NCBI GenBank assembly: GCA_965261085.1
Contig: OZ253442.1
Coordinates: 608,001-672,000 of the forward strand
DNA length: 64,000 bases
Direction: 5' to 3'
From: a bacterium
GTDB taxonomy: Bacteria > UBA8248
The notes below the pieces were generated by a model that did no database searches, was not told where the DNA came from, and worked only from the letters and a program-made list of their open reading frames with translations. The position numbers were made by a program, and so were the translations under genes. Within the stretch, counting starts at the first letter, position 1. Every line of letters begins with the position of its first letter. Shown in pieces: positions 46,174-58,117 of the stretch.

Positions 46174-46333
46174 GACGTGAACTCCCCTCCATGAGGTGAT
46201 GATCGGTATACGCGGTGTCGGGCGTATTCTAACGGCATGGACTCGCAATCTGTCCAACGCCCATGTATATTTGTTCGACATAATCAATGGCGAGCATATC
46301 CTGCGCTACATAGAGTTTTTCCGGAGGTATTTC

Positions 46334-47368
46334 GTGAGCGCTCCTCCCGTGGATGAGTTCGAATATTTCTTTGAAAAACCCTGGTCGGACGGCCTGCCGG
46401 TCATCCCCCCGACGGAAGAGCGCCTGGGACTCATGCTGGCGGGTACGAGCCGCGCTCCGGACGAAGTCATCGGGGACGTGCCCCCGCTGCTGGCCCAGGC
46501 GGACGTTCGGACGATCGCCGTTCATGCCGTCATGGCCGGATGCAAACCGGAGTATATGCCCGTTCTCATCGGGGCGGTCGAAGCCATTCTGGAAGAAAAA
46601 TTCAATGCGGGAGGCGTGCAGGCGACGCTCTCATGCGCGGCCCCGCTTTTGATCGTGAACGGCCCTTACGCCAGGAAAATCGGCATACACGGCGGGCTCG
46701 GCTGTTTCGGTCCGGGAAATCGCGCAAACGCGACGATTGGCCGCGCCATCAGGCTTTTGCTCCTCAACGTAGGCGGCGGAATACCGGGTATCACCTCGAT
46801 GAGCACGTTTTCACAACCGGGGAGGTTCACGTTCTGCATCGCCGAGAACGAAGAGGAAAGCCCCTGGGAGTCTCTTGCGCTGACGAAGGGTTTTGGCGCG
46901 GACGCGGACGTCGTCACCGTCGTGCATGTGGAAGGCCCCGTCATGGTCTGGGATGACGTGAGTAACGACCCCGAACGAATGTTCCCCTCCATTGCGGACA
47001 CCATGTCGCATTTGGGCGCCTGGAATTGTTGGGCCAGCACCGATTTGGTAGTGGCCATGAGCCCGCAGCAGGCTGCGATTTGCGCGAAGAGGGGGTATTC
47101 CAAGGCGGATGTCCATGGACGCCTTTGTGAAATCGCGGGCCGCACGGTGGGCGAGCTCAAAACGGGAGGGCATTTCAGGGAAAATCGGATCAAGGATTTT
47201 CCGATCCCTGTAGATTTGGAAGATGACGATGCGTTTGTTCCGGCGATAAAAGAGGCCCAGAGACTGCTCTTGATCGTGGCGGGCGGAATTCCGGGGCCGA
47301 TGACGGCCGTGATGCACGGCTGGAACGGCAGTAGCCACTCTGTATCCCGTTCATTTGAATCCTGGTGA
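46334..47368 (+). CDS. Uncharacterised WSDGLPVxxPT-family protein, paralog 1
   Basis: GTG after GGAGG; DEFEYFFEKPWSDGLPVIPPT, HAVMAGCKPEY, IVNGP, GCFGPGNRANATIGRA. Confidence 0.85.
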   Translation: MSAPPVDEFEYFFEKPWSDGLPVIPPTEERLGLMLAGTSRAPDEVIGDVPPLLAQADVRTIAVHAVMAGCKPEYMPVLIGAVEAILEEKFNAGGVQATLSCAAPLLIVNGPYARKIGIHGGLGCFGPGNRANATIGRAIRLLLLNVGGGIPGITSMSTFSQPGRFTFCIAENEEESPWESLALTKGFGADADVVTVVHVEGPVMVWDDVSNDPERMFPSIADTMSHLGAWNCWASTDLVVAMSPQQAAICAKRGYSKADVHGRLCEIAGRTVGELKTGGHFRENRIKDFPIPVDLEDDDAFVPAIKEAQRLLLIVAGGIPGPMTAVMHGWNGSSHSVSRSFESW

Positions 47369-47393
47369 TGCCCGTATATTTCAGGGGAGGTGA

Positions 47394-48428
47394 ATGGTTT
47401 TGAACGATCCTCAAGATGAATTCGAGTTTTTCCTGGAAAAACCCTGGTCGGACGGCTTGCCAGTCGTCACGCCAACGGAAGAGCGCATAGAGCGCATGCT
47501 TTCGGGCACGAAAAGAAGTCCAGGCGAGTTCATAGGTCACGTTCCTCCCGCCATGGGCGAGGCTACGGTCCATAGCGTGGCGGTTCATGCGGTAATGGCC
47601 GGCTGTAAGCCCGAGTATCTGCCGGTCGTTCTCGGCGCTACCTCCCTCATGCTTCGCGATGAGTTCAACATGAACGGCGTGCAGGGTACCATGCATGGTG
47701 TGGCGCCACTGATGATCGTGAATGGCCCTTATTCCGAGCAAATCGGCATTCACGGAGGAAATGGCTGCTTTGGCCCCGGCTTTAGGTCCAACGCTTCCAT
47801 TGGACGAGCCATTCGCCTGATTCTCATGAATCTGGGCGGGGGCATCCCGGGCGTTTCTTCTATGACGATTTTCGGCACGCCGCTTCGCTACACCGCGTGC
47901 ATCACGGAAAACCTTCAGTTTCACCCCTGGGAGACGCTCGCTGAATCCAGAGGATATCGGGCGGATGAAAATGTTATTACCATGGCTATGGTGGAAAGCC
48001 CGCGCCTGACTTTCGATGACGTCAGTGAGGAGCCCGAGCGCCTGCTCCGGGGAATCGCCGATGCGATGACGGGCTTGGGTTCCTGGAACATGCATGCGCC
48101 CAGGACCGACATGGTCGTCGCCATGAACCCCCAGCATGCGAAAATTTGCTTTGACGGCGGTTTTACGCACTCGGACGTGCATCAGCGGCTGTGTGAATTG
48201 GCCGGCCATAAGGTAAAAGATCTGAAACGCGGCGGCAACTGGCGACGCGCGCGCGCGCTGGATATGTATATCCATGTGGATCCCGATGATGATGATTTTT
48301 TTGTCCCCGTCATCAAAGACCCCCGCGATCTCCATTTTATCGTCGCGGGCGGCTGGGGTTCCGGCAGCGCGGTCTGCCATGGGTGGAGTGGTGGCAGCCG
48401 CGCCGTTCATGGGGCCTATGAAGTGTAG
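47394..48428 (+). CDS. Uncharacterised WSDGLPVxxPT-family protein, paralog 2
   Basis: Same motif set; GGAGG RBS. Confidence 0.85.
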   Translation: MVLNDPQDEFEFFLEKPWSDGLPVVTPTEERIERMLSGTKRSPGEFIGHVPPAMGEATVHSVAVHAVMAGCKPEYLPVVLGATSLMLRDEFNMNGVQGTMHGVAPLMIVNGPYSEQIGIHGGNGCFGPGFRSNASIGRAIRLILMNLGGGIPGVSSMTIFGTPLRYTACITENLQFHPWETLAESRGYRADENVITMAMVESPRLTFDDVSEEPERLLRGIADAMTGLGSWNMHAPRTDMVVAMNPQHAKICFDGGFTHSDVHQRLCELAGHKVKDLKRGGNWRRARALDMYIHVDPDDDDFFVPVIKDPRDLHFIVAGGWGSGSAVCHGWSGGSRAVHGAYEV

Positions 48429-48469
48429 CGCCGGAGCGGCCATGACGAACAGAACGAAGTCATATTCCT

Positions 48470-49486
48470 ATGGATGAATTTGAGTTTTTCTTCCAAAAAC
48501 CCTGGTCGGATGGTCTTCCGGTAATCCCCCCTACCCAAGAGCGAATGGACGCGATGCTCTCGGGCACGAGACTTGAAAAGTCAGATACCATTGGTTTGGT
48601 GCCGCCCCTCATGGGTCAGGCGAGCGTAGGCGCGATTGCCGCACACGCCGTAATGGCGGGGTGTGAGCCTTCGTTTTTGCCCGTCGTTATTTCAGGCCTC
48701 CAGGCGCTCCTTGCACCAAAACTCAACTTAAACGGCGTGCAGGGCACAATGCACAGCGCGGCCCCTTTGATTATCGTGAACGGGCCTTATGCGAGAAAAA
48801 TCGGTCTGCACGGAGGCACAGGGTGTTTTGGGCCGGGTTTTCGGGCGAATGCGACGATCGGACGCGCTATCAGGCTCATTCTCATGAACTTGGGCGGAGG
48901 TGTGCCGATTTCCGCCTCGATGAGCACGTTCGGCTCACCTGCCAGATATACATTTTGTATTGCCGAGAATGAAGCGGAAAGCCCTTGGGAGCCATTTTCC
49001 GTCACGAGAGGATTTCTTCAGGATGACGATGTTGTAACCGCCGTGATGACGGAAGCGCCCCAAGGGTATATTGATGATTATTCCAAGGAGCCAGAATCTT
49101 TTTTCGTGGGTCTGGCGGATAAAATATCCACATTAGGCTCGCTGAATATATGGCTTAAGACCCAGGTCGTTGTCGCTTTGGGCCCGGATCATGCGCGTAT
49201 GTGTGCGGAAGCGGGCCTTGATAAAGGAGATGTTCATCGCCGGATAGTTGAACTTGCATGCAGGCCTCTCGGAGAACTCAAGAGATCGGGCTATTGGCGC
49301 GAAAATATGATGGCCAAATGGCCATTTGATATCGACCCGCAGGATGATTCGGTTATGGTACCGGCGATTAAGGATGAAGATGATCTGTTGCTTGTTGTTG
49401 CAGGAGGCACCCCCGGGCCGGTAACGGCCGTCATGCCCGGCTGGGTGGATGGGAGTGAGGCGGTCTCGACGGATTATCAACCATAA
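48470..49486 (+). CDS. Uncharacterised WSDGLPVxxPT-family protein, paralog 3
   Basis: Same motif set. Confidence 0.85.
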   Translation: MDEFEFFFQKPWSDGLPVIPPTQERMDAMLSGTRLEKSDTIGLVPPLMGQASVGAIAAHAVMAGCEPSFLPVVISGLQALLAPKLNLNGVQGTMHSAAPLIIVNGPYARKIGLHGGTGCFGPGFRANATIGRAIRLILMNLGGGVPISASMSTFGSPARYTFCIAENEAESPWEPFSVTRGFLQDDDVVTAVMTEAPQGYIDDYSKEPESFFVGLADKISTLGSLNIWLKTQVVVALGPDHARMCAEAGLDKGDVHRRIVELACRPLGELKRSGYWRENMMAKWPFDIDPQDDSVMVPAIKDEDDLLLVVAGGTPGPVTAVMPGWVDGSEAVSTDYQP

Positions 49487-49521
49487 GCGCTTCAGTCGGG
49501 ATAATATTTGAGGATGAACGT

Positions 49522-50541
49522 ATGGATGAATTCGAGTTTTTCCTGGGAAAAGAATGGTCAGATGGCTTGCCTGTCGTGACGCCGACGGAAGAGAGAATCG
49601 GTTTGATGCTCTCTGGAACCAGAAGGGAGTCGGGCGAAGTAATCGGCCATGTAGCTCCGGCTGGGGGCGAGCTCAGCATACAAACCATGGCAACGCATGC
49701 CGTGATGGCGGGATGTAAGCCTGAATACATGCCAGTGTTGATAGCAGGACTGGAAGCGCTTCTTGATGAGCGGTTTAACGTAAATCTGATTCAGGCCACA
49801 ACGAGCGCGGGCGCACCATTTTTGTTGGTCAATGGCCCCTACGCCAAGGAAATCGGACTACACGGGGGAGTGGGCTGCATGGGCCCCGGCTTTCGCGCAA
49901 ATCTGACTATTGGCCGCGCCGTGAGGCTCATCATGATGAATGTGGGAGGAGGAATTCCCGGAGTCACCTGCCTCGGTGGATTTGGAGGTCCTTGGCGAAA
50001 CACTTTTTGCATCATGGAGAACGAGGAGGAATCGCCTTGGGAGTCGTATGCAGAGTCCAAAGGGTTTTCAAAAAACGATAATGTGGTGACAATGATTCCC
50101 CTCGAAGGGCCCGTTCAGGTATGGGACGATGCGAGCCTGACTCCCGATAGGCTTCTTACGACGATTGCCGATATGATGTCCGCATTGGGTGGGCCCAACA
50201 TGTATCGGCAAGCGGACATGTCGGTTGTCCTGGGCGCGCAACATGCGCATCTTTGCGCTGACGCCGGGCTGACCCGTAGCGATGTCCATCAAAAGTTACT
50301 AGAAATGGGAGGGAGAACTATTGGGGATATAAAGCGCGGCGGCATCTGGCGAGGTGAGAAAGGCGCAGATCGCTGGCCGTTTCCCGTGGATGTGAATGAT
50401 GATGATTTTTTTGTGCCTGCGGTAGGTGATCCCGACGATCTTCATTTGATCGTCGCAGGAAGCAGAGGTTCACCCTCGAGCATGGTCATGCACGGAATTA
50501 CCGTGGCGTGCCGAGCCGTGATAAAAAAATTTAGTGTGTGA
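49522..50541 (+). CDS. Uncharacterised WSDGLPVxxPT-family protein, paralog 4
   Basis: Same motif set (GCMGPG variant). Confidence 0.85.
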   Translation: MDEFEFFLGKEWSDGLPVVTPTEERIGLMLSGTRRESGEVIGHVAPAGGELSIQTMATHAVMAGCKPEYMPVLIAGLEALLDERFNVNLIQATTSAGAPFLLVNGPYAKEIGLHGGVGCMGPGFRANLTIGRAVRLIMMNVGGGIPGVTCLGGFGGPWRNTFCIMENEEESPWESYAESKGFSKNDNVVTMIPLEGPVQVWDDASLTPDRLLTTIADMMSALGGPNMYRQADMSVVLGAQHAHLCADAGLTRSDVHQKLLEMGGRTIGDIKRGGIWRGEKGADRWPFPVDVNDDDFFVPAVGDPDDLHLIVAGSRGSPSSMVMHGITVACRAVIKKFSV

Positions 50542-53096: not shown

Positions 53097-53135
53097 TTAG
53101 ACACGGGTGAATTCACATATTATATGGAGAAAACC

Positions 53136-53666
53136 ATGGCGAACGGAATGGGATTTATCGACCCGACGGCGGGTGGCTCGGCTGCGCGAATCGAGCTTGC
53201 GCAACGGCCCGACGATCTTTCTGGAAAAGTGGTGGGCCTCCTCGATAACACCAAAGAACAAGCAGATATTATTTTAGAAACTCTGGGGAATGCTCTGCGC
53301 GAGCAATACGATGTGGCCAGAGTCGTCTCGCTGCGCAAGGAGCATTACTCGAAACCCGCCACGGATGAAATGATCGAAGAAATGGCCCAGGAGGTGGATG
53401 TGGCGATTGCCGCATTGGGCGGCTGAGGCTCCTGCACGTTGTGCAGTGTGCACGACACCGTTGAATTTGAAAAACGTGGCATTCCTTCAACGACCATCAT
53501 CACCGAGGCATTCAAGAACGCGGCGGACTTTCAATTCCGTGGCAAAGGCATGGAAGGCCACCCGTATGTGCAGTTGCCTCACCCAGTCAGTAATTTACAG
53601 CCCGAAGAAATGCGGGAGACTACGCTCAAGTTTGTCGAAGAAGTGGCCAGCCATCTGAAAAGCTGA
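53136..53666 (+). CDS. UGSC-family selenoprotein, in-frame UGA at 53424-53426
   Basis: LSGKVVGLLDNTK...AIAALGG-U-GSCTLCSVHDTVEFEKRGIP...LPHPV; the two track ORFs are in frame; hairpin GTTGTGCA-GTG-TGCACGAC 53438-53456. Confidence 0.9.
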
Positions 53667-56916: not shown

Positions 56917-56939
56917 CGACACCGAAAGAGGTATTCGAG

Positions 56940-57491
56940 ATGATGGGTCGGTTGGATGGCTGGCGGCAAGGTGAATTATTCCTTCAAGACGGAGAATCGC
57001 TAAAACATCATGTTGCTGACTGGCTGAAGAAAGTGCGCTCGGAATTCTCGGTTTTTATGTCGGATGAGGGCATTGCGGAAATAAGAATGTTGAATGGCGT
57101 GGAGAAGCCTCTCGCGGCTGATCATGCGAGTGAACAATCAACGCCTTTGAGTCGTCGAGCCTCAAAGGAAATAGAAGAGTACCTGAGAGGCACTCGCCAA
57201 AGTTTCAAACTGAAAACAGACCTCTCCATTCTCACGCCTTTTATGGAAAAGGTACTCAGGGAGACAGAAAAAATTCCTTATGGAGAGACACGCTCCTACG
57301 GCTGGGTGGCGAAGCAGATCGGCAACCTGAAAGCTTCACGCGCCGTTGGACAGGCGCTGCATAGAAATCCCGTTCCCCTTGTAATACCCTGACATCGGGT
57401 CATCGCGAGTTCGGGTGAACTCGGTGGATTCGCTAGCAGCGTGTCGCTCAAGGCGGCACTCTTAGTCCATGAGAGGAGTCATAAAAATTAG
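56940..57491 (+). CDS. ogt: Methylated-DNA-protein-(seleno)cysteine methyltransferase, in-frame UGA at 57390-57392
   Basis: [42 protein letters not shown]...K..LL.HE to TAG 57491; hairpin CGAGTTC-GGGT-GAACTCG 57406-57423. Confidence 0.88.
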
Positions 57492-57541
57492 GGCACGCGG
57501 ATTTCGCTTGGTGGCATCCAGGAAATATCGGAGGATGAAAA

Positions 57542-58117
57542 ATGTCAAAACAGATGAATGATTTTGTCGATCATGTACGTCAAATTGTAAAAACAGGTGG
57601 CTCCGAAGAAGAAATAACCGCCCGCGTAGCGGCGAGCCTCGATCCGATTCTCAGTGACCCGGACTTGTTGAGTGATGATCAACTCTTGGTGAAACAAGAA
57701 GGATTTACGCTCAACCAGATTCATATCGAGCCGGATGAGAATTTCTCCATAGGTGCCGGCATATGGGATGTAGGACAGACTACTCCGATTCACGATCATG
57801 GTACTTGGGGCGTGATAGGCATTTACCGTGGAATGGAGAACGAAGAGAGTTTTTTGCGTGAAGGTCCCCGGGAAAACGGGGCCCGTGTAAATCTTACACC
57901 CCAAGGCAAACGCTTGGCCGGGCCCGGAGATGTCTTTGTCTGCTGCACAAAGGACAATGACGTGCACCGAGTGAGTTGTGCTTCGTCTGAACCCGTGGTG
58001 GGTGTCCATGTCTATGGTGGTAATCTCGCCAAGATAGCGCGTTTTAAGTACGAAGAATTAACCGGCGAAGTGAAATCGTTTAATACAGGGTGGGATTATG
58101 CGAAAAACTCTGCTTGA
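57542..58117 (+). CDS. Cysteine dioxygenase-family (thiol dioxygenase-like) cupin
   Basis: W..GQTTPIHDHGTWG, DVHRV, GVHVYG. Confidence 0.8.
   Translation: MSKQMNDFVDHVRQIVKTGGSEEEITARVAASLDPILSDPDLLSDDQLLVKQEGFTLNQIHIEPDENFSIGAGIWDVGQTTPIHDHGTWGVIGIYRGMENEESFLREGPRENGARVNLTPQGKRLAGPGDVFVCCTKDNDVHRVSCASSEPVVGVHVYGGNLAKIARFKYEELTGEVKSFNTGWDYAKNSA

Follow-up and report, generated by a model that had tools for sequence, protein, structure and literature searches.

Selenocysteine as the predicted alkyl acceptor of an Ogt-type DNA alkyltransferase held across most of the bacterial phylum UBA8248

Results

The ogt locus

The window, a stretch of 64,000 nucleotides from a bacterial genome of the GTDB phylum UBA8248, carries an ogt gene whose reading frame is interrupted by a single in-frame TGA (Table 1). 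Translated with table 11, the ORF closes after 150 aa at this codon. When the TGA is read as selenocysteine (Sec, U), the frame gains another 32 codons before it reaches a TAG, for a total of 183 residues, and the TGA takes the position of the Cys in the PCHR motif, giving P150-U151-H152-R153-V154. The gene follows the stop codon of an acyl-CoA dehydrogenase (ACAD) gene after a gap of 23 nt, with an RBS-like sequence in front of its ATG. A first-pass annotation of this DNA had noted a TGA on the invariant Cys of the motif, an Ogt C-terminus that continues for 32 codons beyond it, and a 7-bp stem with a GGGU loop lying 21 nt past the UGA. Each of these was found again, the first two as codon 151 of the ORF from ATG 56940 and as an open frame to the TAG, and the third both in the sequence and in its predicted fold.

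Table 1 Positions of the ogt gene, its signals and other features of the window
Feature	Position	Strand	Details
Sec-containing ogt CDS	56940..57491	+	183 codons; U = codon 151; stop TAG 57489-57491
UGA Sec codon (predicted), alkyl-acceptor position (= human AGT Cys145)	57390..57392	+	alignment to human AGT
SECIS hairpin (predicted) within the CDS	57406..57423	+	stem 57406-57412 / 57417-57423; loop GGGU 57413-57416
RBS-like AAAGAGG, 8 nt 5' of ATG	56925..56931	+	inferred from sequence reading
191-aa dioxygenase homologue	57542-58117	+	solved 3-mercaptopropionate/cysteine dioxygenases, E 1.5e-21
UGSC-family selenoprotein gene (candidate)	53124-53666	+	in-frame TGA 53424-53426; likely stop TGA 53664-53666
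Pfam-less ORF 1	46196-47368	+	Pfam at E up to 1e-5
Pfam-less ORF 2	47394-48428	+	Pfam at E up to 1e-5
Pfam-less ORF 3	48470-49486	+	Pfam at E up to 1e-5
Pfam-less ORF 4	49522-50541	+	Pfam at E up to 1e-5

On the same strand, the gene order runs from a UGSC selenoprotein through two enoyl-CoA hydratases, a CBS protein and the ACAD to ogt and a 191-residue protein, and a short-chain dehydrogenase comes next on the opposite strand. The 191-residue protein had no Pfam match above threshold (CDO_I at E 0.0032) and was recognized as a thiol-dioxygenase homologue by its similarity to solved structures. No terminator-like site was predicted on the + strand between 55925 and 58117, that is, from the ACAD through the end of the dioxygenase gene, in a promoter and terminator scan that stayed near its shuffled expectation (7 vs 5.8 and 10 vs 6.6). 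Further upstream lie four consecutive ORFs of 338-390 aa (46196-50541) in which no Pfam family was found at E up to 1e-5.

The UGSC gene is a selenoprotein candidate of its own. Its 100-aa cut ORF matched PF24696 (E 4.8e-21), and read-through of the in-frame TGA gives the motif GG-U-GSC. The hairpin behind this UGA folds no better than shuffled sequence (z 0.52), with a loop just 11 nt from the UGA. When the window was searched in a simple way for further frames with a read-through TGA, 89 noise-like candidates came up but not ogt itself, and this search was dropped.

The encoded protein resembles two-domain alkyltransferases

Residues 100-179 of the 183-residue product matched PF01035 (DNA_binding_1) with an E-value of 8.3e-31 (106.1 bits, cut-off 27), and the NCBIfam model TIGR00589 'ogt' gave 101.7 bits (cut-off 46.4). 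The best solved relative was the OGT of Mycobacterium tuberculosis (E 2.4e-22, residues 48-181), and human AGT was also retrieved (E 2.5e-16). In human AGT, Tyr114 is among the residues needed for DNA repair, and Arg128 serves as the arginine finger. In the alignment, Y120, R134, N143, H152, R153 and E178 correspond to human Tyr114, Arg128, Asn137, His146, Arg147 and Glu172, of which N137, H146 and E172 have roles described in the human enzyme (PMC4150793). Residues Y120, R134, N143, H152 and R153 were invariant across 42 homologues with either Sec or Cys at the acceptor position (Sec and Cys forms), and E178 was present in at least 90% of the rows. Human Tyr158 is replaced by Phe164, and Phe at this position is common to the Cys forms of the same clade.

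An AlphaFold2 model built from the 42-homologue alignment reached a mean pLDDT of 86.3 and a pTM of 0.82, with residues 1-16 below 50. Foldseek matched the model to M. tuberculosis OGT with E 9.6e-13 and TM 0.68-0.79 over 157-159 columns, and further to archaeal, human and E. coli alkyltransferases. With both family models above their cut-offs, the two-domain AGT fold, the nucleophile position in P-x-H-R-V and the active-site residues all in place, the protein is predicted to be an ordinary two-domain Ogt/MGMT except for its acceptor residue. Outside the window, the genome also encodes an Ada-type paralogue (G000:C1:2535998-2537074, +), a 359-aa frame whose N-terminal part is rich in Cys and whose C-terminal Ogt domain carries a normal PCHRV, so that the organism would have both a Cys and a Sec alkyltransferase.

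ATL proteins consist of a single domain of ~110 residues and have no nucleophile at the acceptor position. Membership of the window protein in this group was rejected on account of its 183 residues, its two domains and the conservation of both the UGA/Cys position and the C-terminus; ATL structures matched the model over just 59-83 columns in Foldseek. Despite having no acceptor residue, ATL proteins bind to alkylated DNA, and SelB-dependent decoding competes with release factor 2. The gene might thus give two products, a full-length repair protein with selenium and a 150-residue ATL-like damage sensor without it, which would be compatible with the full-length protein being a Sec-containing Ogt. 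The match of the model to S. pombe ATL (83 columns, E 1.9e-4) points in this direction, but the 150-residue fragment may not fold because the last helix of the C-terminal domain (H168-180 in the model) is missing from it, and we consider a second, functional product unlikely.

Gene context of ogt across the phylum

The order ACAD-ogt-dioxygenase was kept in all 23 loci of the window's genus and, in part, at two loci of another (L069, L070), and the dioxygenase gene adjoined ogt in 6 of the 11 loci from the family's other genera. None of these neighbours was found within ~1.5 kb of ogt at any of nine loci (eight of them Sec forms) from the other three families of the phylum. One Cys form, L079, lies in the same gene context as the window gene, and the context is therefore not tied to Sec.

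The first-pass annotation had read the unusual acceptor as either a means of faster or broader alkyl capture or a recyclable methyl carrier for a surrounding catabolic operon. The latter would make Ogt mainly an alkyl or methyl acceptor for the neighbouring acyl-CoA and thiol catabolic genes, with its Se-alkyl form regenerated. Such a role could draw on the fact that an enoyl-CoA hydratase, the ACAD, ogt and the thiol-dioxygenase homologue share a strand, with 23 and 50 nt separating ogt from its neighbours, on the stretch free of predicted + strand terminators, on the gene order kept in the genus and in part in another, and on the dioxygenase gene adjoining ogt in about half of the loci from the family's other genera. 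We nevertheless judge it highly improbable. The DNA-repair residues are invariant, the Sec-Ogt genes of two other families lack these neighbours within ~1.5 kb, and the Cys form L079 has the same context; besides, a stoichiometric acceptor could supply a pathway only if it were regenerated, of which we saw no sign, and a gene order shared among the relatives of one family may be merely inherited. We read the gene order around ogt in this last way and find in it no positive support for service to the catabolic genes. The idea of a recyclable methyl carrier thus found no support and stays speculative. The other part of the earlier interpretation, a UGA-encoded Sec at the acceptor of an Ogt/MGMT protein, was supported by the Sec machinery and by the conservation of both TGA and hairpin, as described below.

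A related possibility concerns the Se-alkyl adduct itself, which might not be a dead end if the selenoether were removed and the protein reused, perhaps with the aid of the thiol-dioxygenase homologue that adjoins ogt in several genera. We give this very little credence; if true, it would be the first multi-turnover alkyltransferase.

Conservation of the UGA codon and of the frame behind it

Among 51 genomes of the phylum that we examined, 43 had a best Ogt match with exactly one TGA. These comprised 23 of 23 genomes of the genus, 12 of 19 from the rest of the family, and 1 of 1, 7 of 7 and 0 of 1 from further families; one 67%-complete genome of the phylum had no Ogt match. In genomes of other phyla with an Ogt match, a TGA was found in 0 of 14. 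We inspected 39 of the 43 TGA-bearing loci, leaving out G062-G065, and the TGA was the acceptor codon (P-x-HR) in every one. Together with these 39 TGA forms, 12 Cys forms were found at the same codon, of which L041, L043 and L079 belong to the clade and the other nine do not. A search for homologues with TGA or TGC at this codon and a conserved hairpin, as had been proposed at the outset, thus returned 39 TGA and 12 Cys forms and, in the window's family, a hairpin paired in all 210 cells compared. The refuting case that all close relatives have Cys and no hairpin was not borne out, since all 23 genus genomes carry the TGA and the hairpin is paired in the sequences compared from the family.

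Across the 23 same-genus genes, pN/pS was 0.185 over the 28 codons after the UGA and 0.224 past the hairpin, compared with 0.200 over the 50 codons before the UGA. The codons past the UGA are as constrained as those ahead of it, which indicates purifying selection on the extended frame.

The base calls were compared with public sequencing data, where the stretch or part of it was found in 20 runs from 12 studies among the matches listed, four of which were examined. The DNA contigs X3 and X6, from two studies, span the full 1.4 kb with 4 and 5 differences, none of them at the TGA. An RNA-library contig, X16 (57348-57900), covers the UGA and extends into the next gene with the TGA unchanged; being an assembled contig, it is not proof of transcription or read-through. 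In another, X18, ogt is covered in pieces with almost no cover at the UGA, which is likewise not proof of transcription. The independent contigs X3, X6 and X16 all carry TGA, so the concern that reads might show TGC or TGT instead was not borne out. Runs labelled 'sponge metagenome' contained next to none of the stretch's words.

Irregular copies were seen at individual loci. The Sec-ogt copy L073 (G040) has an extra stop soon after the hairpin (~1797-1870), and an adjacent G run contains one G fewer than that of the closely related L071; either the gene is truly broken or the homopolymer was wrongly assembled. In G029 (G029:C1:237352-237785), a Cys form, the Ogt match is divided between two overlapping frames free of TGA, so that the gene is probably frameshifted or misassembled.

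A SECIS-type hairpin follows the UGA

In the RNA downstream of the UGA, CGAGUUC pairs with GAACUCG over 7 bp; the stem starts 14 nt downstream of the UGA, and the first base of the loop lies 21 nt after the A of the UGA. A 76-nt stretch folded at -30.7 kcal/mol (z = -2.55, with 1 of 200 shuffles equally good), and the hairpin alone at -9.9 kcal/mol. We regard the hairpin as beyond chance because of the comparative data and not because of this single fold. Pairing was kept in 210 of 210 cells, representing 30 distinct sequences of the window's family, and two of the seven stem pairs showed compensatory changes (G-C to C-G or A-U, and C-G to U-A; 10 cells). None of 500 shuffles attained the observed pairing or covariation score, and when the partner strand was slid by 1-3 columns the pairing fell to 27-53%. 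Two other families of the phylum have hairpins of unlike sequence (GGUCC...GGACC and GGCCUCC GGC GGAGGCC) at a near-identical distance. The mean hairpin energy was -12.3 kcal/mol for 38 distinct Sec sequences versus -7.5 kcal/mol for the 12 Cys forms (Mann-Whitney p 2.7e-5, a generous value since relatives are not independent).

The bSECIS model as described in PMC13188914 has a loop of 3-9 nt, a stem of 4-16 bp, a UGA-loop spacing of 16-37 and an energy limit of -7.5 kcal/mol, with a G within the first two loop positions. The window hairpin lies within all four constraints of that model, having a 4-nt loop with G in its first two positions, a 7-bp stem, 20 nt between the UGA and the loop, and the energy given above. 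It differs from the bSECIS consensus in that the Rfam scan of 57340-57500 gave no match at E up to 10, and in that the hairpin sequence varies between families of the phylum. As was initially observed and is now confirmed by these comparisons, ogt is predicted to be a genuine Sec-encoding gene with a SECIS hairpin.

The genome is equipped for Sec insertion

The genome consists of one contig of 4.27 Mb. It contains selA (E 2.7e-154), directly adjoined by selB (384 bits, cut-off 242), and a selD gene (G000:C1:3459-4421, -) with an in-frame TGA of its own in the context VKAGG*GSKLG, because of which the selenophosphate synthetase (SelD) is predicted to be a selenoprotein itself. One tRNA-SeC(tca) was found, the sole tRNA with a tca anticodon among 52 tRNA genes. 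All of selA, selB, selC and selD, which the first-pass annotation had suggested looking for, are thus present, and by its gene content the genome is equipped to insert Sec. Of 13 neighbouring genes, 5 end at TGA in the usual way; the code is therefore not reassigned. The locus accordingly shows the features by which bacterial selenoproteins are recognized: a UGA aligned with the Cys of homologues, a bSECIS hairpin, the selA/B/C/D genes and coding constraint past the UGA.

Since the identity of the residue is read here from sequence alone, the UGA could in principle be decoded as Trp, Cys or a near-cognate residue, but this is extremely improbable in a genome where the only tca-anticodon tRNA is tRNA-SeC, TGA closes neighbouring genes, selA, selB and selD are present, and the TGA is accompanied by a SECIS-type hairpin that is weak or absent in the Cys forms.

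The best 57 database relatives of the protein share 65-98% identity with it, have lengths of 138-150 aa and reach no more than 82% coverage of the query, and five of these 57 are named ordinary methyltransferases by NCBI. Their lengths are consistent with gene calls that end at the UGA. These short stored proteins, together with the table 11 ORF of 150 aa, are what one would expect of a nonsense pseudogene or sequencing error from which only a dead 150-residue fragment is made, a reading that is hardly tenable against the same TGA at 39 of 39 inspected loci, the purifying selection on the downstream codons (pN/pS 0.185), the compensatory changes that preserve the hairpin and the agreement of independent contigs on the TGA.

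Evolution of the acceptor residue

A quick maximum-likelihood tree was calculated from an alignment of 51 rows and 115 columns, in which the acceptor column had been masked, and was left unrooted. One group (SH-aLRT 86) contained every one of the 39 Sec forms as well as the three Cys forms of the clade, and the other Cys forms fell outside it. The tree needs 4 changes of acceptor state, compared with a mean of 10.9 for shuffled labels. With the root placed outside the group, this corresponds to one gain of Sec and about three reversions to Cys, which is a reading and not a proof because the tree is short and unrooted. L079 (G036, TGC) and L070 (G026, TGA) are sisters within one genus, and L079 keeps most of the hairpin with one mismatch, so that it looks like a recent reversion from Sec to Cys. 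It is likely that Ogt became a fixed Sec protein early in the history of the phylum and went back to Cys a few times.

Discussion

Our results indicate that the window gene very probably encodes a two-domain O6-alkylguanine-DNA alkyltransferase (Ogt/MGMT) with a Sec acceptor that is decoded through a SECIS hairpin and inactivates itself upon reaction. In the proposed course of events, the hairpin downstream of the UGA would recruit SelB-GTP-Sec-tRNA(Sec), the UGA would be read as Sec, and translation would go on through the last 32 residues, among them the His-Glu portion of the active-site network. The protein would then bind DNA via its helix-turn-helix, the arginine finger R134 would flip out the O6-alkylguanine, and the selenolate of U151 would take over the alkyl group in a single self-inactivating step, most likely as in any Ogt. 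The likely advantage is that a Sec acceptor would need no assistance from the protein to be ionised, because the pKa of Sec is lower than that of Cys (~5.5 vs 8.6, PMC4150793). Faster or broader alkyl capture by Sec, as had been put forward in the first-pass annotation, is plausible chemistry.

Sec-containing Ogt proteins have been predicted since 2005, when a Sec 'methylated-DNA-protein-cysteine methyltransferase' was first reported in C. hydrogenoformans (CHY0809), termed unique and described as 'most likely evolved very recently' (PMC1287953). Two sequences from gutless-worm symbiont data followed in 2007 (PMC1976440) and one from the GOS ocean metagenome data in 2008 (PMC2398784), and the family is listed in the reviews PMC9312934 and PMC13188914. 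The statement in the first-pass annotation that Sec forms had been predicted but were rare and not characterised agrees with what is described in these three reports on prediction and on the lack of characterisation, and our literature searches found no biochemical study of a natural Sec-Ogt and none of its DNA repair. The earlier proteins and the window protein are alike in having a UGA-encoded Sec where other members have their active-site Cys, a stem-loop immediately downstream of the UGA and the full Sec machinery, all of it from prediction. They differ in distribution, CHY0809, which we compared by its description, having been called a recent one-species case, whereas the window type occurs in 43 of 51 genomes of its phylum. 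The window gene is thus, by prediction, a well-supported addition to a known family and not a new kind of gene; what is new relative to the earlier predictions is that Sec appears to be held across nearly the whole phylum.

With the Cys-type enzymes (M. tuberculosis OGT, 4bhb and 4wx9; E. coli Ogt and Ada-C; human AGT/MGMT), the window protein shares the two-domain fold, the P-x-H-R-V motif and the Tyr, Arg-finger, Asn, His and Glu residues. Unlike them, it has a Sec acceptor, Phe for human Tyr158 and ~20 extra, poorly modelled residues at the N-terminus. That a selenolate is capable of the chemistry is known from the work of Haruna et al. 2014 (PMC4150793), in which human AGT was engineered to carry Sec as its acceptor (C145U); this protein was active in vivo, where it shielded an E. 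coli strain without ada and ogt against MNNG. In that work, N137A abolished the Cys form of human AGT but not the Sec form (PMC4150793). The engineered protein was made with an amber codon in an EF-Tu-dependent manner without a SECIS, and its Asn137 was dispensable, whereas the window protein retains the corresponding Asn (N143).

The host lineage uses many selenoproteins. BSepDB places genomes of GTDB phylum UBA8248 (Nitrospinota/Nitrospinaceae/Nitrospinae at NCBI) among the ten most selenoprotein-rich bacteria, with 48-54 genes (PMC13326102). Neither the family name nor PF01035 or UBA8248 turned up in the BSepDB supplement examined, and the database may still list these genes.

Since gene callers seemingly stop at the UGA, Ogt relatives are stored in databases apparently without their active site, and both the repair capacity and the selenoprotein content of the lineage would therefore be under-counted. 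A phylum-wide Sec with a few reversions to Cys would correct the 2005 view of a recent one-off event. Natural pairs of Sec and Cys forms, such as L070 and L079 from one genus, allow the benefit of selenium to be tested in a protein that does not turn over, and a natural Sec-Ogt may also interest engineers of AGT-based self-labelling tags. Sec would here have been kept for a long time in a protein that presumably acts a single time before it is destroyed.
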